DNA of 64,000 nucleotides from a virus, in IMG/VR virus record IMGVR_UViG_3300046804_006785, one strand, 5' to 3'. Position 1 is the stretch's first letter; each line of letters begins with the position of its first letter. This document shows positions 2,285 through 46,434 of this stretch, in pieces. A program made the position numbers and the translations under genes. The notes beneath the pieces are model-generated. The model was given only the letters and a program-made list of their open reading frames with translations, ran no database searches and had not been told where the DNA came from.

Positions 2285-2602
2285 CTGTCAGCACTGAATT
2301 AGTAAAAATATTTTACTGTATTTTGTATTATTTCATGTCTTAAAAACTACTTATAAATTGCATACTTTATATAGACTCCTAAACCTACTAGGAGTCTTTT
2401 TTATTCCCAATTCCCTATACTAACACCGTCCTTATAATACAGCCTAAAATATGTCAAGCGTATTTTTATATATCATTTGTATAAACTAAAATATTGTGCT
2501 AGATTAATAGCATGACCCATCAAACAGATGAGACGGTAGCACGTCTCAAATGTTTTATATCGGATGGGAGTCACCTTAACTTATTAAATCCACAAGGTAA
2601 CT

Positions 2603-3415
2603 ATGCCAATTGTACAACATGATTTTAACGGAACACCAATCTCTCAGACAGCCGATGATACTTTGATAGGTAATACATTAGTACCTAAAGGCTATACAAA
2701 CCTAACTGAAATGTGTAAAACTAAGAACAAAAAATTAGGACATTATTTGAGTTTAAAAACTACGCAAGAATATATTACAGCCCTTGAGAAAAACCTGAAA
2801 GTGGATATCGCTATTCCGGTATCCCCTATGGTTATTATCATTCAGGGTTCTTTTGCGGGTATAAGCACTTTTCAGGGAACTTGGGGACATATCGAAGTAG
2901 CTATGGATTTAGCCAAGTGGATTGATGTTGAATGTCGCATTTGGGCTAACCGAGTTTTGGTGAAAGTTGTTCAAGGTGATGTTAAAGCCTTAACACCTGA
3001 AGCAGAATTAGCCATGAAAAAGTTGACCGATCTATGGGAACAGATTCGGCAACATGGGAAAGAAACCCGTCGGACTCTAACCGACGCTATTGCTGCTTAC
3101 TTCAAAAGACATCCTGAATTAACTGAAACTTACAAAAGCGATGTTTGGTGGATGGCTACTAACGCAATGTATAACATTGTATTCGGTTTAGACGCAATGG
3201 AGTTAGAAAAGTTCTTAAATTGTGCGCGTCATAAATCTAGAGATTTTCTAGATCAAAAATGTCTTATGGCAATTGATCGGGCTGAAGCGGGAATTTGCCA
3301 ATTAATAGACAACCGGGATATAGAACCATGTGACGCTGTTTTTCAGTATCGGGATTTCTTTGGCGTAACACAGATGTTCCCAAATAAAAAATTAGTTCCC
3401 GTTGATTTTAATTAA
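2603..3415 (+). CDS. KilA-N domain protein
   Basis: GYTNLTEMCK...QGTWGHIEVAMDLAKWID, typical KilA-N motifs. Confidence 0.85.
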   Translation: MPIVQHDFNGTPISQTADDTLIGNTLVPKGYTNLTEMCKTKNKKLGHYLSLKTTQEYITALEKNLKVDIAIPVSPMVIIIQGSFAGISTFQGTWGHIEVAMDLAKWIDVECRIWANRVLVKVVQGDVKALTPEAELAMKKLTDLWEQIRQHGKETRRTLTDAIAAYFKRHPELTETYKSDVWWMATNAMYNIVFGLDAMELEKFLNCARHKSRDFLDQKCLMAIDRAEAGICQLIDNRDIEPCDAVFQYRDFFGVTQMFPNKKLVPVDFN

Positions 3416-3424
3416 ATAACAACA

Positions 3425-3454
3425 AACCCCTAGCAGCAAGTGTTAGGGGTTTTT
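3425..3454. terminator. Bidirectional intrinsic terminator, closing the mini-array transcript on the minus strand
   Basis: AAACCCCTAGCA...TGTTAGGGGTTTTT. Confidence 0.7.
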
Positions 3455-3460
3455 AGGATG

Positions 3461-3634
3461 TTATAAGCACTTAGCTAGGAACAATTTATCAGTTTCAATC
3501 CGTTTCAATCCGTTTCAATCCAACTCACACGAAAGTGAGTATTTACTGTGATCAACGCTTACAAGCATTTAGCTAGGAATAGCTTATCAGATCGTTCTAG
3601 TTTCAATCCAACTCCCTATTAAGGGAGTATTTAT
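3461..3634 (-). CRISPR. CRISPR-like mini-array: two 35-nt hairpin repeats (3600-3634, 3512-3546), two extra GGATTGAAAC copies (3492-3511) and two spacer-like segments
   Basis: Minus strand ATAAATACTCCCTTAATAGGGAGTTGGATTGAAAC and GTAAATACTCACTTTCGTGTGAGTTGGATTGAAAC; stems co-vary; both end in ATTGAAAC. Confidence 0.65.
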
Positions 3635-3649
3635 ATTTGTCTCAGTCTC

Positions 3650-4321
3650 TTATAAGCACTTAGACAAAAACAATTTATCAGATCGTTCTAGTCCGCAGCT
3701 ATACGCATCAAGCATCACACTTTCTAGCAGTTCTGCCGCATAGATTAGTTTCTGCTTCCAATCGTCCCTAAAAACTATGTCTTTAGGAATATTCATGGTT
3801 ATTTTACCATGTGCTACTATTTTATCAAATGAAGATAGCACACAAGATATATTTTCAGCAACATCAAAGTATCCGTTATGTTGTTGTGGTATTGTTCCGG
3901 CGGCAGTTGATCTAGTAGGTTGAGGGTCATCATGAAATAAGTAGTCATCTATAGGGATGTCTTCTACTTGAGCCTCCATATATTCAATCAGTTCAGCCTG
4001 TGCTTGTTGTGGCACATCTGAAATCTGATATCCCTGGAGATTACAAAACCGTTCAGCCTGTGCGTAAGTGGCTGTTCTGTGGATTAACACCCCTTTAACC
4101 ACGATGATGTATGGTTGAGTTAACCCATCTAGGCTGTCATCATCGTAGTCAATAATGGCAACTTCTTTTTCAACTTGCTTAGGTTGTGGCTGATGAGCCA
4201 GAATTTCTGTAATGCAATCGGCTTTACTACGACGTTTAGCACAACCGATTTGATCACAGATTTTCCATAGTTGATTACGGGTTTTGTGGGATAGTTGCTT
4301 TTCAGAGTAGAAGTATGTCAT
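3650..4321 (-). CDS. Hypothetical protein with N-terminal Rho-N/SAP-like helical motif
   Basis: LSHKTRNQLWKICDQIG...KADCITEIL; own promoter at about 4398-4427. Confidence 0.5.
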   Translation of the reverse strand: MTYFYSEKQLSHKTRNQLWKICDQIGCAKRRSKADCITEILAHQPQPKQVEKEVAIIDYDDDSLDGLTQPYIIVVKGVLIHRTATYAQAERFCNLQGYQISDVPQQAQAELIEYMEAQVEDIPIDDYLFHDDPQPTRSTAAGTIPQQHNGYFDVAENISCVLSSFDKIVAHGKITMNIPKDIVFRDDWKQKLIYAAELLESVMLDAYSCGLERSDKLFLSKCL

Positions 4322-4397
4322 TATTAATTAAACCTTTAATAGAGGTCTTAGGAAGTCGCTTGTTTTCCAGACGTGGCGACTTCCTTTGTATGATTAA

Positions 4398-4427
4398 AAT
4401 ATAAACTATATAGTTTACAGTTGTCAA
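4398..4427 (-). promoter_or_regulatory. Sigma70-type promoter containing a perfect 16-bp palindromic operator (4402-4417)
   Basis: TTGACA at 4422-4427 (minus); TAAACTATATAGTTTA palindrome between the divergent genes, next to an XRE regulator. Confidence 0.65.
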
Positions 4428-4473
4428 GTAATAAGCTAAGATTTTAATAAATTTAATTTGGAGTCACTTACTG

Positions 4474-4719
4474 ATGCCCGTGAAAGTTAGAAAAATCACA
4501 AAAACAGAAATAGATGTACCTAATCTACCTGAGCAAATAGCACAAGCAAGATTACAGTCTGGTAAGTCTGTTAAAGAGGTTTGTGAAGCAACTGAAATCA
4601 GTAGAACCTTTTGGAATAGGCTGATATCCGGCAAAGAAGAAGCAATAGCCTACCCTACAATCCAAAAATTTGAAAGATTTTTTGGCATTGACTTTGGTAT
4701 TAGATTTGAGGAAGACTAA
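4474..4719 (+). CDS. XRE/Cro-family HTH regulator
   Basis: IAQARLQSGKSVKEVCEATEISRTFWNRLISG. Confidence 0.85.
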   Translation: MPVKVRKITKTEIDVPNLPEQIAQARLQSGKSVKEVCEATEISRTFWNRLISGKEEAIAYPTIQKFERFFGIDFGIRFEED

Positions 4720-4745
4720 GTATAATCACAGTGGCAAATAAAGCA

Positions 4746-4779
4746 AAAAAGCCAGGATTAATAATAGTCCTGGCTTTTT
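4746..4779. terminator. Bidirectional terminator
   Basis: AAAAAGCCAGGA...TCCTGGCTTTTT. Confidence 0.75.
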
Positions 4780-4793
4780 AATATTTATTTTTT

Positions 4794-5510
4794 TTAACGC
4801 CAAACAAACACAGTCGTTTTGTCTGCCTGGACTTCCCTGAACTCTTCCTGCCAATACTCAACAGGGAAGTAAGCTAGGAAATCGTAAAACTCATACCGAG
4901 TCAATAACCCTGGATAAGACGGACTTTCTAGCTCATCATGATCAATGCAGTCAAAGTGTATGGGAGTCATTGACTGAGCATTTTCACTCATCCCTAGTTC
5001 TTCCCTTAACGCTCTTTCAGCCGCAATAGCGGGATCTTCATCAATGGTCATTTTCTCTGACAATCTATCGAACCCTCGTTTACGGATGCGACCGTCTTTA
5101 AACTCCTGACGGTCTTCATAAAGTGTCAGTTCCTTATCTAGGCAGATCACCTTAACCCTTGCTACTTTTAAGCAGCGTATAGGCTTATTATCTTCCCATA
5201 TTATTTGGGATTCGCCATTGCTTATCTCATTCCGTAGCGACTGGTAACTTTTAGCTTGACCATGCCCATATTTTTCTAAAGGCAAAACGTTTTTTAAGTC
5301 CTTCACTTTTTTGATCTCAACTTTATAGCCCAAACAATTCAAAGTCTGGTTAATTTTTACCCATGTTTCAGGGTCTTTTTTCATCCACTTTGATAAACGG
5401 TGGTGAACCGTGTCCAGACTTTCTTTTGTCTGGAGTGCTATTTTTTGAGCAGCATCATAGGTGCTGTTGTAGCTGCTCAATATCTTTTTAAGAGTGTGGG
5501 ATAGGGTCAT
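4794..5510 (-). CDS. HTH-like N-terminus fused to NUDIX hydrolase domain
   Basis: Nudix-box-like EKMTIDEDPAIAAERALREELG; N-terminal helical DNA-binding-like segment. Confidence 0.65.
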   Translation of the reverse strand: MTLSHTLKKILSSYNSTYDAAQKIALQTKESLDTVHHRLSKWMKKDPETWVKINQTLNCLGYKVEIKKVKDLKNVLPLEKYGHGQAKSYQSLRNEISNGESQIIWEDNKPIRCLKVARVKVICLDKELTLYEDRQEFKDGRIRKRGFDRLSEKMTIDEDPAIAAERALREELGMSENAQSMTPIHFDCIDHDELESPSYPGLLTRYEFYDFLAYFPVEYWQEEFREVQADKTTVFVWR

Positions 5511-6022
5511 TAAATTACCCCATACTCTAAGGCTGCTTTGATCACGTTAAAAGAATCAGCAGGTGCTAACTGTTTTAACTTCCCACCACTACGGGGGATG
5601 AGTAGCGCGGTAGGCTGGGAATAGATATGGCATAACGCCTTGATAGGCTGCCATTCTTTACCAGTGGAGTCTTCTAGACTCCAGAAATATTCCCCTGTTT
5701 CACCTTGGGCAATGTCTAATTTTTCGGACTTCACCCATTTAAAACCGTTCTGTCTAAGGACTTCGTTCATATCAGAACGAGTCTCTTTTTGTTTTCTATA
5801 TCCGTTCTTAGCGGATAAACCCGATCCGCGAACCACATTAGCCGCGAATTTAGCTAATACGTCCTCAACTTGATTGATCATTTTACTTTCCAATTTTTCT
5901 AGTTTTCCTTCTAAGATGATAAGAGAGTCAATGAAATACTTTACACCTTTTGCAATCTCGCGCAAACAGGCAGCTATTTGGTTTTTGATAGTGCGAATTT
6001 TGTAAGATAATGTAGTAGTCAT
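5510..6022 (-). CDS. Hypothetical early protein (shares N-terminus with 37176..37799)
   Basis: ORF with own promoter; KIRTIKNQIAACLREIA N-terminus. Confidence 0.7.
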   Translation of the reverse strand: MTTTLSYKIRTIKNQIAACLREIAKGVKYFIDSLIILEGKLEKLESKMINQVEDVLAKFAANVVRGSGLSAKNGYRKQKETRSDMNEVLRQNGFKWVKSEKLDIAQGETGEYFWSLEDSTGKEWQPIKALCHIYSQPTALLIPRSGGKLKQLAPADSFNVIKAALEYGVI

Positions 6023-6052
6023 TGTTTTATCTCTTGCTCTCTTATGTAATCC

Positions 6053-6081
6053 ACTATAGATAATTTTCTCTATAATGTCAA
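6053..6081 (-). promoter_or_regulatory. Near-consensus sigma70 promoter, family A
   Basis: TTGACA-17 nt-TATAGT; near-identical copies at 6874-6902 and 7395-7423. Confidence 0.8.
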
Positions 6082-6106
6082 GTAGTTTTATAAAATAATT
6101 TTTACA

Positions 6107-6140
6107 AAAAAAAATCCCTAGTTGTTAGCTAGGGAATTTT
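6107..6140 (-). terminator. Intrinsic terminator (duplicated at about 6930-6960)
   Basis: A-run plus TCCCTAGTTGTTAGCTAGGGA stem-loop present twice. Confidence 0.75.
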
Positions 6141-6147
6141 ATTAGTC

Positions 6148-6843
6148 TTAAAAATATCCTTTATCACTCCAAGAACCTATACCAACATCCCCAACGGAAC
6201 CACTGCGTTTAGGAAGAATCTCATCTACATATTCTTGTTCCCAAACTTCTAGTCTGTCAGGAAATATCCGATAGATTTCTTGCTTGTAATGCTTCCTGGT
6301 GACAAGGATTTTTCCATCCTCACCTAAGTCTCGCCAAAATGACTCAACTTTTAGAACTTTTTCAAAGAAAGTATAGGATGCAGTGTAGAAGTTCTCAGGT
6401 TCTACCTTCTTCCCGTTTTCCCAATAATGATCATTAAGATCATAAGCTTGTCCATCCCATTTGGGCTGAACTTTTTTTAACTCTTTATAGGCAGCCAGCC
6501 TATTAAAGATTTTTACTTCTGGTTTTGGTGGCAGTTCTTGTAGCTCAAGCAGTTGAGTTACTTGAATTACTTTTTTTTCTACTACGAAATTTTTTATTTC
6601 TGCAATACCCTCTGCGGGTAATGCAGAAATATCTAGACCTAAAACCCTCGCTTGGAAGGCATTATATATTATATGTGTATCTGAAATTCCCCAATGGAAA
6701 ACTTCTTTAGCTTCCCACCCATCAATTTCTATATATTTTTGGTTAGTTTTTGCGCTTTCATTTAGCGCATTAATTCTCCGACATTTTTGCTCCCAAGCAG
6801 TGAGAGCGTCAAAATCTAATTTAATCGTTTTGGTTAGTTTCAT
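6148..6843 (-). CDS. Hypothetical early protein
   Basis: 231-aa ORF bracketed by a family A promoter and a terminator. Confidence 0.7.
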   Translation of the reverse strand: MKLTKTIKLDFDALTAWEQKCRRINALNESAKTNQKYIEIDGWEAKEVFHWGISDTHIIYNAFQARVLGLDISALPAEGIAEIKNFVVEKKVIQVTQLLELQELPPKPEVKIFNRLAAYKELKKVQPKWDGQAYDLNDHYWENGKKVEPENFYTASYTFFEKVLKVESFWRDLGEDGKILVTRKHYKQEIYRIFPDRLEVWEQEYVDEILPKRSGSVGDVGIGSWSDKGYF

Positions 6844-6964: not shown

Positions 6965-7174
6965 TTATAGATACATAATGCCGTCTTTGAAAAAGATTTC
7001 AGTTACCTGGAGGGTATATCGGGTAAAGTTTTTATCCGCGTACGCATCATTTCCATCTAAAAAGCCCTGATCCACGCCTTTTTGATAAGCGTGTTTTTCA
7101 GATTTAGCAAGCACAATGCATTTGCATTCATGCTTGCCATGATAATCCTGTTTTTCAACTAAGTAATATTGCAT
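6965..7174 (-). CDS. Small hypothetical protein
   Basis: 69-aa ORF with AGGAG RBS. Confidence 0.7.
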   Translation of the reverse strand: MQYYLVEKQDYHGKHECKCIVLAKSEKHAYQKGVDQGFLDGNDAYADKNFTRYTLQVTEIFFKDGIMYL

Positions 7175-7185
7175 TTTTTTCTCCT

Positions 7186-7362
7186 TTATAGGTATTCAAA
7201 GCTCACGACACCTTGCCCACCGTGTGCTTCACGAAAAGAAATCTTTTCCGAGATGTTTAATTCCTTTTCAACAATCTTTTCGGCAACAACATGATTGCCA
7301 ATGTGTAGATATACTTTGATTTTTTTGTTGTTGTTGCTTAAATTCCAGTTTAAGTAATTCAT
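7186..7362 (-). CDS. Small hypothetical protein (58 aa, not in ORF track)
   Basis: MNYLNWNLSNNNKKIKVYLHIG...SFEYL*; GAGG RBS; directly downstream of a family A promoter. Confidence 0.7.
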   Translation of the reverse strand: MNYLNWNLSNNNKKIKVYLHIGNHVVAEKIVEKELNISEKISFREAHGGQGVVSFEYL

Positions 7363-11562: not shown

Positions 11563-12633
11563 TTAAAAAGCGGATGCTAATTGCTTAACGTCAATTGTTG
11601 CGGAGTCTGCTGCTAATAACTGTGGCAGTCTAAAGTTTATGTACTTTTGACCTGCATCAAGGTTGGTGAAAACTCTACCTTTAGGACTGTAGCCATTGGC
11701 TACTTTTTCTATTGCTTCTAAGGTCATTAACGCTTTTCCGCCCATACCTTTGCCAGCAATGGCTAATAGTGGACTTGCACCATCACCCATGTTAATAATA
11801 GCTTTACCAAAGAATGACCCTTTAGAAGCGGTCACGAAATATACGGATTTATCCGTCAAGGATACTGCACGGAATTTCCAGTTTTGGATTCTGGCTTTTT
11901 CTCCCGAATCTTTTTTGGTTATTTCCTTGTCTTCCCATTCTATCTGAGAGATTTCGTAAGCACCCAAGGGTAACTCTTTCAGTTGAGCATATTGGAACGC
12001 TTCACCAACTTTGCCCACGTAAGGTGAAGACACTATAGCTTTATAAAGGTCTTCTAGTTCGCCATTGGAACTATTGAAAATTTCAACAAGCTTTTGCTGC
12101 GCGTTTTCATGATCGCGGCTGTAAGATAAAATGAATGACAACATTTTGCTGTTGTCTTTAGCTCGGACAATCTTAGTTGGGTCTTTTTCGCTGGGTTTAG
12201 CGGAATTAAGGTTAAATGTGAATCCTGCAAAGTGTTTAACGGACTTATCCGCTTGTTGAACCTCAAAGACTGAATCTTCTATAGAACAGCTTACGCTTTC
12301 CATGACTTCATACACAGAAGCTAAATCTAGTTTCCAATCTCCCAAAATGAAATATAGCTGATTGTTTCCATCAGCATCTTTGTCTACTTTAAAGCTAGGA
12401 GAAAGTGCATACTTGACCTGCATCTCCTTATCTAAGGCAAATTTCAGGACTTCTACATCGTCTTGAATTTTGAAAATGTCTGCTAAAGCTACAATACTAG
12501 CTGCACCTAAACCGGGTGCTGTTTTTAAATCAGCTAATTTCAACCCATAAATGCCAGGCTTAAAACTATTGTAATCAAAATTGTCAAAAAGAATAGTGTC
12601 GTAGTCGCGGAATGTTTCAGAAGAGAGTAACAT
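11563..12633 (-). CDS. Hypothetical protein in the DNA metabolism block (own promoter at 12725-12753)
   Basis: 356-aa ORF; TTGACA-17-TATTAT upstream. Confidence 0.65.
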   Translation of the reverse strand: MLLSSETFRDYDTILFDNFDYNSFKPGIYGLKLADLKTAPGLGAASIVALADIFKIQDDVEVLKFALDKEMQVKYALSPSFKVDKDADGNNQLYFILGDWKLDLASVYEVMESVSCSIEDSVFEVQQADKSVKHFAGFTFNLNSAKPSEKDPTKIVRAKDNSKMLSFILSYSRDHENAQQKLVEIFNSSNGELEDLYKAIVSSPYVGKVGEAFQYAQLKELPLGAYEISQIEWEDKEITKKDSGEKARIQNWKFRAVSLTDKSVYFVTASKGSFFGKAIINMGDGASPLLAIAGKGMGGKALMTLEAIEKVANGYSPKGRVFTNLDAGQKYINFRLPQLLAADSATIDVKQLASAF

Positions 12634-43537: not shown

Positions 43538-45025
43538 ATGACCTTATCCTTTGGCAAGCTTAACCCTAAGAATATAAAAAAAATTAAAAAAGCCACTATA
43601 GATAATCAGATGGTAGACACATCTGATTTTGAGGTCAATCTTCCTGCACCGTCACCTGGAGCGCAGGAAATGTTCTATAACACGCCCGCTGATGTGTGCA
43701 TATATGGTGGAGCCGCAGGCAGTGGCAAGAGTTTTTCAATGCTCTTAAAAGCGTCTAAATTCTTAAAAGTGCCAGGTTACGGTTCTGTTATTCTAAGACG
43801 GACTCGACCTGAGATAACTAACGAAGGCGGGTTATGGGATGAATCAAGAAATTTATATAAACTAATACCAAAAGCCCAAGCTAGGGAATATCAACTAGAC
43901 TGGGTTTTTCCTACTGGTAGTGCTATTAGTTTTGGACACGCTCAATATGAAAAAGATGTTGAGGATAAATATCCAGGTTCACAGATATGTCATCTTGGCT
44001 TTGACGAGTTAACAAAATTTACAGAGCGTCAATTCTGGTTTTTGTTCTCACGGAATAGATCAACCTGTGGCGTTAGACCTCGTATTGATGCAACCTGTAA
44101 CCCTGATGCCGATTCATGGGTAGCAAAGTTAGTAGCTTGGTACATTGATCAAGATACTGGCTACCCTATCGAAGAAAGATCGGGAGTCTTGAGGTATTTT
44201 TACCGGATCAATGGTGAGATTCATTGGGGTGATACAGAACAGGAATTAATGGATCAATTTCCAGACTTGGCGGCGATCGCACCACCTAAAAGTTTTACTT
44301 TTATCAAGGGGACTGTATATGATAACCCGCATCTATTAGAATCTAATCCTCAATATCTGCAAAACCTTTTATCGTTGCATCCTGTAGAAATGGAGCGACT
44401 ATTAAAAGGTAACTGGAAAATTAAATATGAAGCGGGAACTATATTTAATCGCCATTGGTTTGAAGTGGTTAACTCTGTTCCGGCTGGTGGACAAACTGTG
44501 GCTTTTTGGGACTTTGCCGCTACGTCGTCGGCTACAGCGTCAAAAAGTAGTTTCTACAGTGTACGGACTAAAATCAAGCTATACCAAGGCATCTATTATG
44601 TTCTTGATTGTTTTTGGGAACAGGTATCAGCGGATGACGGAGATAATTCAGTTTGGAAAATTGCCCAGCAAGATGGAACTGCTTGTAAGGTGCGCTGGGA
44701 ATTAGAAGGTGGTAGTGCTGGCAAACGTTACGAGTCATCGCTCAAACGTCAGTTAGTAGGTTTTGACGCTAGGGGTGTTAAGCCGTTAGGTGATAAGGTT
44801 ACACGCGCTATGCCTTTAGCTATTGCTGCTAAAGATGGAAAGGTGAAACTATTTAGAGGCGCGTGGAACGATCAATTTTTAGCGGCGTTACATGAATTTG
44901 ATGGTAGCAAAAAACCCCTAACTAACGATATTGTAGATAGTGCCGATGGTGCTTTTGGTGAGTTACAAGAATCTACTCCGCGTAGTAGTTTTGTTGGTGG
45001 TAAGATTCATAATCCATTTAGTTAA
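43538..45025 (+). CDS. terL: Terminase large subunit
   Basis: GGAAGSGKS, LRRT, FDELT, ATCNP, DNPHL, WDFAA, DIVDSADGA. Confidence 0.95.
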   Translation: MTLSFGKLNPKNIKKIKKATIDNQMVDTSDFEVNLPAPSPGAQEMFYNTPADVCIYGGAAGSGKSFSMLLKASKFLKVPGYGSVILRRTRPEITNEGGLWDESRNLYKLIPKAQAREYQLDWVFPTGSAISFGHAQYEKDVEDKYPGSQICHLGFDELTKFTERQFWFLFSRNRSTCGVRPRIDATCNPDADSWVAKLVAWYIDQDTGYPIEERSGVLRYFYRINGEIHWGDTEQELMDQFPDLAAIAPPKSFTFIKGTVYDNPHLLESNPQYLQNLLSLHPVEMERLLKGNWKIKYEAGTIFNRHWFEVVNSVPAGGQTVAFWDFAATSSATASKSSFYSVRTKIKLYQGIYYVLDCFWEQVSADDGDNSVWKIAQQDGTACKVRWELEGGSAGKRYESSLKRQLVGFDARGVKPLGDKVTRAMPLAIAAKDGKVKLFRGAWNDQFLAALHEFDGSKKPLTNDIVDSADGAFGELQESTPRSSFVGGKIHNPFS

Positions 45026-45030
45026 ACTTG

Positions 45031-46434
45031 TTAAAGTTTATTATCATAGGCTGAATGTGTCCTTCCCATTGGCAGATTTGGTGATATAGCAGATCCGTAA
45101 AGTCGGGCTGTTGTTGAATTGTGAGGGACTGTAAATACGCGCCTATCTGCAATCAAAATACCACCAGCAAAAGCACCACTACCAGGATAAGTGACACTAG
45201 GTGTAGTAGTTGCATCTGACATAGAGCCATATATTCTTGCTGTAGTAGAGTTGAAAGGAATAAGAAACACTTGTCCATCTGGTAATAACACGCCACTTGC
45301 AAAAGCACCATTACCAGGATATGTAGAGTTAGATGTGATTAGTGTATTAATTGATGGATCGTATATCATCGCGCTTGTAGCATTGAACGGTACACAGAAT
45401 ACTCGACCATCTGGTAATAATACACCACCAATAAAAGCGTTATTGCCTGGATAAGTACCCGTAGGGGTAATTACTGTATTTGCTAAAGGATCATAAATTC
45501 TTGCTGTAGTAGAGTTGTGTGGTACACAGAATACCCTTCCATCTAGCATCAATACACCACCAGCAAAAGCAGCGTTTCCTGGATAAGTACCATTAGGTGT
45601 AATTAATGTGTTAGCCGTTGGATCGTATATTCTTGCTGTAGTGGATCTAAATGGTACACAGAAAACTCTACCATCTGGCAGCAACACACCACCATAGAAA
45701 GATTGACCACCTGGATAAGTGCCGTTAGGTGTAGTTAATGTGTCAGTAGAGGCGTTGTATATTCTAGCTGTAGTAGAGTTGAAAGGAATAAGAAATACCC
45801 GACCATCAGGCAACAAAACACCACCAGAAAAAGCATCATTCCCAGGATAAGTACCGCTAGGAGTGGTCAGCGTGTTAGTAGATGGGTTAAATATTCTAGC
45901 TGTTGTTGATTTAAACGGAATACAAAATACTCTATTGTCTGATAACAATACACCACCATAGAAAGCGTTACTGCCAGGGTAAGTACCATTAGGTGTAGTT
46001 AATGTATCAGTTATAGCACCGTAATTGAATTGCCGAACATCAATAAATTTAGCAGTTGGTGCTAGTGGGAAGTAGCGGAAGTCTAAAGTATCATCTTCTG
46101 TAAAACTAGGCCGGAAAACTTGAACTAAACTTAGGTCTAATGTGAATACTTCTATATTCTGACAAGTCCATTTAAAAGACTCACAGCAATATAATGCACC
46201 GTTAAAAATTATGGGTTGTCCTAAGTTAGTGGTAAGAAAATTATCTATCTCTATGTATTCTGTAAACTTAGTCACTACTAATGATAGTGCCTGTGTTTTG
46301 GCAACTTGGTTAATTTGGTTTCTGTTGCCTTTCTCATCTACACCACCATAGTAATTTTGAGTTAGATATGAAGATTCAAAGCTGAGAGCATTTTCCCAGC
46401 TTAGTTTAAGGGAATTAGGGGCAGTAGCAAACAT
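45031..46434 (-). CDS. Minor tail-like N-terminal domain fused to about seven 43-aa Kelch-like repeats (putative beta-propeller receptor-binding protein)
   Basis: Repeat unit TTARIY.P...TL.TP.GTYPG..AF.GGVLLPDGRVFC.PFNS (129-bp DNA period). Confidence 0.65.
   Translation of the reverse strand: MFATAPNSLKLSWENALSFESSYLTQNYYGGVDEKGNRNQINQVAKTQALSLVVTKFTEYIEIDNFLTTNLGQPIIFNGALYCCESFKWTCQNIEVFTLDLSLVQVFRPSFTEDDTLDFRYFPLAPTAKFIDVRQFNYGAITDTLTTPNGTYPGSNAFYGGVLLSDNRVFCIPFKSTTARIFNPSTNTLTTPSGTYPGNDAFSGGVLLPDGRVFLIPFNSTTARIYNASTDTLTTPNGTYPGGQSFYGGVLLPDGRVFCVPFRSTTARIYDPTANTLITPNGTYPGNAAFAGGVLMLDGRVFCVPHNSTTARIYDPLANTVITPTGTYPGNNAFIGGVLLPDGRVFCVPFNATSAMIYDPSINTLITSNSTYPGNGAFASGVLLPDGQVFLIPFNSTTARIYGSMSDATTTPSVTYPGSGAFAGGILIADRRVFTVPHNSTTARLYGSAISPNLPMGRTHSAYDNKL

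Follow-up and report, generated by a model that had tools for sequence, protein, structure and literature searches.

Type I-C family CRISPR repeats joined to copies of a neighbouring gene's end in a phage of bloom cyanobacteria

The window analysed here, 64 kb in length and with a G+C content of about 36%, is phage DNA, as its genes for a large terminase (TerL), KilA-N, helicases and a methylase show; this agrees with the phage-borne origin assumed in the preliminary description. The locus of interest occupies its minus strand from position 4427 down to 3424 (Table 1). It comprises a gene for a protein of 223 aa (ORF223) and, between the stop codon of this gene and its terminator, two CRISPR-like hairpin units, each followed by a further copy of the gene's own 3' end. 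The promoter of ORF223 would presumably drive the repeats as well as the gene, and the product of the small divergent gene on the plus strand is probably a regulator. The 30 homologues of ORF223 (48-91% identity) end in FLSKCL or FLAKCL. Comparison with Pfam assigns ORF223 to no family, a search of IMG/VR with it found no relative, and its structure model (pLDDT 65, pTM 0.30) has no fold match at E <= 0.001, so that an anti-CRISPR protein is neither supported nor opposed.

Table 1. Features of the repeat locus and of the empty site of a second insertion (window coordinates).
Feature	Position	Strand	Remarks
Small divergent gene	4474..4719	+	HTH domains (HTH_3/HTH_31, some weak) in the counterparts of relatives
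Sigma-70-like promoter of the 223-aa gene	4398..4427	-	TTGACA, 18 nt, TATATT; 11 of 12 consensus positions
Early gene, 223 aa (ORF223)	3650..4321	-	Highly mosaic among relatives
Copy A: working 3' end of the 223-aa gene, last 13 codons and stop	3650..3691	-	Part of cassette 1; identical end, tail 1 and repeat 1 form a displaced unit in L127
Tail 1, 13 nt, stop codon to repeat 1	3637..3649	-	Accompanies repeat 1 in L127 too
Repeat 1, 37-nt CRISPR repeat of the type I-C family	3600..3636	-	Covariance model 60 bits
Copy B: displaced gene end, 41 nt including stop, in spacer position of repeat 1	3559..3599	-	Part of cassette 2; best natural matches 31/35 (L131, L270, L275)
Tail 2, 10 nt, stop of copy B to repeat 2	3549..3558	-	Also precedes the repeat-2 type in L127 and L270/L271
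Repeat 2, 37-nt variant with compensatory stem change	3512..3548	-	Covariance model 49 bits
Two extra tandem copies of GGATTGAAAC (last 10 nt of the repeat)	3492..3511	-	
Copy C: remnant of the original gene end, 31 nt	3461..3491	-	Equals the gene end in use in L275 at 31/31 positions
Original terminator hairpin of the 223-aa gene	3424..3452	-	Same terminator after the stop in array-less relatives
Empty site of the second insertion, end of ORF 11563..12633	11563..11586	-	Filled in L129

The two repeats start 88 nt apart and enclose 51 nt; repeat 2 is followed by 20 nt of duplicated handle, the 31 nt of copy C and then the terminator. The preliminary description had reported two minus-strand hairpin units with a compensatory stem change, and both the predicted folds and the pair counts agree with it, except that the units measure 37 nt and not 35 nt. 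Its match counts also hold when recounted: the working gene end is identical to copy B at 33/42 positions, with 8 of the 9 differences synonymous, and to copy C at 27/31. Copies B and C differ from each other at five positions, all of them synonymous. The same arrangement recurs in the independent assemblies L118, L130 and L148, and partly in L119 and L149; hence an artefact of assembly can be dismissed. Scans of the window for Rfam families and tRNAs gave no match, nor did a BLASTN comparison of positions 2500-6500 with phage and plasmid collections.

Judged by sequence and fold, both units are genuine CRISPR repeats of the type I-C family, which bears out their earlier designation as CRISPR-like. 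A scan of IMG/VR with the last 15 nt of the units led to arrays on two related phage contigs, G001 and G002 (IMG/VR 3300042503_001836 and _002860; 118.5 and 111.7 kb), whose 37-nt array repeat is identical to repeat 1 at 36/37 positions. These long arrays, of 21 and 31 units, flank genes for Cas7/Csd2, Cas5c, Cas8c and Cas3; in comparison with NCBIfam, Cas7/Csd2 (E 1e-83), Cas5c and the Cas3 HD domain score above the cut-off and Cas8c below it. No cas1, cas2 or cas4 lies between the cas genes and the arrays. Both contigs are close relatives of the window phage, with TerL identical at 97% of amino acids and about 32 kb (31.8-64 kb of the window) at 82-97% nucleotide identity; upstream of the window, pol, a recJ-like gene and dnaX are 94-98% identical at the protein level. 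Because the exact sequence GGATTGAAAC occurs four times in the 64 kb, each time at this locus, and because repeat 1 is nearly that of arrays beside cas genes, the locus is not a product of chance. The covariance model finds only these two repeat units in the window.

Repeats 1 and 2 are both predicted to fold into a stem of 6-7 bp followed by an 11-nt single-stranded 3' end. Among 16 repeat variants the stem is kept by paired changes (compensatory C-G to A-U); many positions differ, and the last 10-12 nt are conserved with the exception of one G in L127. In type I-C systems the 5' handle is 11 nt long and is cut by Cas5c, so the family assignment replaces the processing 8 nt from the repeat end that had been expected earlier and that would suit a Cas6 handle. 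The real arrays of this repeat family have spacers of 29-45 nt, and in G001 (23533-23651, L137) one spacer of 41 nt stands twice running, as spacer, repeat and identical spacer.

The comparison with repeats of a cyanobacterial host, proposed in the preliminary description, turns out favourably in part. The nearest cellular match to the phage Cas7 is from Dolichospermum (70%), the likely host genus, on whose chromosome the cas3 / cas5-cas8c-cas7 layout is that of the phage. The type I-C array there has a repeat of the same length, 37 nt, with the same stem-loop layout and the same last 10 nt, while the stem sequence differs. In the chromosome of Dolichospermum sp. BR01 (L289 5355-11800), a type I-C locus with the gene order of the phage has no adjoining cas1, cas2 or cas4 and is followed by an array of about nine repeats. 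Across 401 sampled cyanobacterial genomes, a 14-mer of the repeat's 3' end gave single matches and no array; a 15-mer of the repeat, which is a poor pattern, gave single chance matches and no array among the matches listed for genome contigs. The 60-odd spacers of G001 and G002 have no protospacer in the window, its extensions, the relatives or the phage collection, and therefore yield no PAM for the phage system; the eight spacers of the Dolichospermum I-C array have no match in the same DNA either. Neither the window nor about 31 kb upstream of it, in all about 95 kb of this phage, was found to contain I-C cas genes. The one contig that extends to about 30 kb upstream carries an intact KilA-N gene there.

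How gene ends came to lie behind the repeats can be read from the states of this site in related phages. Empty sites, in which the stop codon of the gene is directly followed by the terminator, are present in L120-126, L129, L131, L275 and L276, and this terminator is the one that stands behind copy C in the window. Copy C itself is, letter for letter, the working gene end of the array-less L275. In L270 and L271, the gene end is followed by tail 2, a unit of the repeat-2 type and then 147 nt of gene 3' end; this piece, an intact frame of 48 codons from another natural haplotype, ends in the copy-C allele and the terminator. In the window, cassette 1, made up of copy A, tail 1 and repeat 1, stands ahead of cassette 2, which joins copy B to tail 2 and repeat 2, and copy C comes last. 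L127 contains the same two cassettes in reverse order: cassette 2 comes first, with 12 more nt of the gene behind it, and cassette 1 follows, from which the two extra handle copies lead on to copy C and the terminator. The pair of extra handle copies thus precedes copy C in both genomes, in L127 behind the other repeat type. The displaced pieces measure 31, 41, 53 and 147 nt in different genomes, and five independent junctions, one of them at another gene, lie exactly at the repeat's last base.

This series of sites with no, one and two cassettes identifies the segments in spacer position as displaced ends of the resident gene. Every inserted cassette brings in a replacement for the gene end, complete with stop codon, to which a short tail and a single repeat are attached. 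Successive insertions of this kind into the last 30-150 nt of the 223-aa gene built the mini-array, and after each of them the resident end stood immediately behind the repeat, in spacer position. Accordingly, the earlier view that the segments are acquired spacers, from which the phage's own gene copy has escaped by silent changes, gives way to what the preliminary description had mentioned as the alternative, namely repeated small insertions that duplicated the gene end. The synonymous differences are evidently natural alleles of a mosaic gene and not the result of later recoding. The expectation that relatives carry the spacer-type alleles within intact genes is confirmed, both by the allele of copy C in L275 (31/31) and by L120-L126, whose genes match the first guide of L127 at 35/35 positions.

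The same layout is found at a second gene. In L129, one canonical repeat lies between the stop codon of the homologue of ORF 11563..12633 and a 24-nt copy of its end, and the two gene-end copies differ at two positions, both of them third codon positions. Other repeats stand alone. In G001 (7160-7196, L136), a solitary canonical repeat takes the place of about 100 codons of an acetyltransferase gene, of which the first 23 codons are kept and followed by a stop; the window phage retains the whole gene (127 aa). A solitary variant repeat in L308 (9274-9310, about 17.6 kb before the window start) is followed by 40 nt that are 40/40 identical to G001, where this DNA lies about 250 nt further on, with one additional spacer, one repeat and about 170 nt in between. 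Another solitary variant repeat, in L148 (14817-14853, about 2.5 kb before the window start), stands about 70 nt after a gene for 210 aa and is followed by about 20 nt and a terminator, without a plausible guide; at the corresponding position G001 carries a pair of repeats, separated by 9 nt, and an extra handle copy. Taken together, the repeats of this phage group sit at joints of rearranged DNA, and on the 3' side each joint coincides with the last base of the repeat. A further sign that the site downstream of ORF223 is an insertion hotspot comes from three contigs (L272-L274), in which a TnpB/IS605 OrfB-like gene lies 28 nt past the ORF223 homologue in the place of the terminator.

What is more challenging is the question of function. 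We tentatively propose, with somewhat less than even confidence, that the units make guide RNAs directed against relatives without the insertion, and we regard a guide function as plausible on present comparisons. The strong gene promoter would transcribe through the repeats as far as the old terminator, and a Cas5c-type enzyme, supplied by a co-infecting relative with a type I-C system or by the host, would cut the repeats 11 nt from their end. In the resulting crRNA-like products, the guide would correspond to the allele of relatives without the insertion. The carrier itself would be safe, since it uses another allele as its working gene end and its old end is flanked by the repeat and not by a PAM. 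Such a device would bring about allele exclusion between closely related phages and might spread by recombination in a homing-like manner. As to its origin, a unit downstream of the gene may have acquired a spacer from a relative's copy of that gene, nearby sites being favoured by primed adaptation, and an unequal crossover may then have taken place between the acquired spacer and the relative's gene. This route would explain the exact junctions between repeat and gene, displaced ends of any length, the allelic differences and stacking in either order; the deletion joints could have come about in the same way.

Candidate targets exist in the population, in keeping with the established role of viral mini-arrays against close relatives. 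The first guide of L127 has its perfect match in seven array-less contigs, the guide formed by copy C matches L275 at 35/36 positions, the guide of L129 matches the window at 32/35, and the flank of the solitary repeat of G001, which has an I-C effector, matches the window phage at 34/37, against 40/40 in the reverse case (L308). From these guides the gene of the carrier itself differs at 7-8 positions. However, the match between guide and relative follows from the way the structure originated, and it is therefore not independent evidence of selection for targeting. For repeat 1, the best match of the guide among the sampled relatives is 31/35, and the 20 nt of duplicated handle before copy C would destroy the seed pairing of that guide. 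The inserts between repeats, 51 nt in the window and 66 nt in L127, are over-long in comparison with the 29-45 nt of real arrays. The search for I-C cas genes in the window and the 31 kb upstream, which found none, likewise speaks against guides.

The PAM of type I-C systems is TTC. None of the would-be protospacers in un-inserted alleles has it; the 5' trinucleotides are GAC/GCT, ATC, CTT, GTT and GTT. A type I-D PAM, GTN, was considered and discarded: it fits two of the five junction flanks (GTT, GTT), and the repeats adjoin I-C genes. With the flanks GTA (the window-phage match of the G001 repeat) and CTC (the G001 match of the window-phage repeat) added, the fit is three of seven, which is suggestive at most. 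Measured against a CRISPR array, the locus thus shares its repeat with I-C arrays and has the stem-loop and the 11-nt 3' end, and it lacks regular spacing, the usual spacer length and the TTC PAM known for the type. Measured against a mini-array, it has one or two spacers on a virus without adjacent cas genes, with none of the I-C type found in the 64-kb window, and these spacers match close relatives and mismatch the carrier, again as a consequence of the structure's origin.

An extension of the guide proposal, which we consider improbable as it stands, is that the cassettes represent a natural form of RNA-guided homing element in phages. By bringing in a repeat and a replacement end, an insertion would turn the resident end into a guide against all relatives with an empty site; these relatives would be cut with Cas proteins borrowed from the host or from a co-infecting phage, and repair from the carrier would copy the cassette into them. 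The opposite stacking in the window and in L127 could then be the trace of two elements that invaded each other's carriers. There is a resemblance to the intron-less homing of phage homing-endonuclease genes, where likewise the recognition site is lost through the insertion itself, relatives keep a recognizable empty site, flanking coding sequence of the donor allele is included and competing elements stack. Unlike in that process, recognition here would depend on an RNA guide and borrowed Cas proteins instead of an encoded nuclease, and cleavage and conversion are putative.

Among the rival explanations, a decoy is somewhat unlikely in our judgment and the one to be taken most seriously. The co-transcribed repeats would act as an RNA anti-CRISPR (Racr) and soak up the I-C proteins Cas5c, Cas7 and Cas8c of the host or of a rival phage, and the gene-end copies would be by-products of repeat capture and movement by recombination. 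There is a close precedent in RacrIC1, an I-C repeat mimic that lies 11 nt downstream of acrIC5, is co-transcribed with it, and belongs to a phage without matching cas genes nearby (Camara-Wilpert et al. 2023, PMC10651486). The succession of gene, repeat and terminator is the same at our locus, where co-transcription is probable, the unit of copy C carries a tripled handle, and this phage has more solitary repeats without a plausible guide, such as the one about 2.5 kb before the window. The distribution of cas genes also suits a decoy: relatives of this phage and its likely host genus possess I-C genes, and the search through about 95 kb of the phage itself found none. On the other hand, a Racr has no other repeat within about 100 bp (PMC10651486); the repeats here start 88 nt apart with a 51-nt insert between them, which makes them a mini-array and not a solitary repeat by the criteria of that study. 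Further differences from RacrIC1 are the gene-end copies in spacer position and an upstream gene without similarity to known Acr proteins, as it has no family or fold match. Similar solitary units are found even in G001, which itself bears an I-C effector, and a decoy gives no reason for the exact and constant junction of the gene-end copy with the last base of the repeat.

It is also conceivable, if unlikely, that the repeats are recombination scars without present function, left by joints between phage and CRISPR array or between phages at repeats, and that, located in a 3' untranslated region, they do no harm and are therefore retained. Consistent with this are repeats at joints of both signs, with duplications at two genes and the deletion of about 100 acetyltransferase codons in G001, as well as flanks without a common PAM and displaced ends of arbitrary length. 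Mere scars, however, would not be expected to differ as widely as these variants do and yet to keep their stem by paired changes and their last 10-12 nt, the one G in L127 excepted; nor does the recurrence of the cassettes across several samples and arrangements favour this explanation.

A very improbable reading links the repeats to a type IV-B-like module of the window phage itself, for which they would provide guide or scaffold RNAs. On the plus strand of the window (21155-25250), matches to Csf2 (E 6e-8), Csf3 (3e-10), a CysH-like PAPS-reductase domain (6e-16) and Csf1 (6e-9) lie next to one another, with all three csf matches below the curated cut-offs. This array-less module is the only Cas effector found so far in this phage, and type IV-B systems lack an array and a processing enzyme, their natural RNA being unknown (PMC8175902). 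The reading is weakened by five module-bearing IMG/VR relatives, one of them complete at 95 kb, that do not contain the 12-nt 3' end of the repeat. Csf2 homologues at 63-87% identity occur on 16 IMG/VR phage contigs, with no such repeat within 10 kb of csf2. In G001 the repeat family is associated with I-C genes, and G001 and G002 have the type I-C system in place of the IV-B-like module. A crRNA-like regulatory RNA of the CreA type was rejected, the matches being to the 3' end of the adjoining gene and not to the promoter of a cas, toxin or defence gene.

In its relation to known systems, the locus adds a new structural variant to the virus-borne mini-arrays and solitary repeats. Its anatomy is solid, and the guide function remains the preferred interpretation at the strength given above. 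Viral mini-arrays have been found to target nearby genes of close relatives, a proximity that the authors left unexplained (Medvedeva et al. 2019, PMC6858448); mini-arrays against close relatives are also reviewed in PMC11656645, and both articles cite a survey of virus-borne mini-arrays by Faure et al. (2019). The present locus shares with those of Medvedeva et al. the one or two spacers, the absence of adjoining cas genes, repeats of a cognate system, spacers that match relatives instead of the carrier, and targets near the array. It differs from them in that it has no leader, its units lie within the 3' untranslated region of a gene, its segments are displaced ends of the adjoining gene (31-147 nt), and there is no consistent PAM. 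Moreover, identical repeats have so far been found only in related phages that carry the effector and were not found in the 401 sampled cyanobacterial genomes. With the I-C arrays of G001 and G002 the locus has the 37-nt repeat, the stem-loop and the 3' end in common, and unlike them it has neither cas genes alongside nor regular spacing, and segments that exceed 29-45 nt.

The relatives provide a natural series: sites that are empty, that contain one cassette or that contain two in either order, the same layout at a second gene and, elsewhere, a deletion joint. With such a series at this locus, the origin of the proximity between array and target becomes testable. It shows that a spacer can simply be the displaced end of the neighbouring gene, joined exactly to the repeat; any repeat that lands in a phage genome would then at once encode a potential guide against relatives without it. 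The comparison also reveals that closely related phages of bloom cyanobacteria carry alternative CRISPR modules: some possess a complete type I-C effector with long arrays, whereas the window phage has a IV-B-like module and scattered repeats.

Two minor observations concern the same phages. An internally repetitive ORF of 467 aa (window 45031-46434, minus strand) resembles, at about 70% nucleotide similarity, several stretches of the IMG/VR contig L014, which terminates in a leader and one repeat of the same I-C family. The TerL gene of the window (43538-45025) matches G001 (94057-96768) at 97% in two parts, residues 1-69 and 50-495, which are separated by about 2.1 kb in G001 and lie there in one open frame of 911 aa; this split suggests an intein or inserted domain that is absent from the window.
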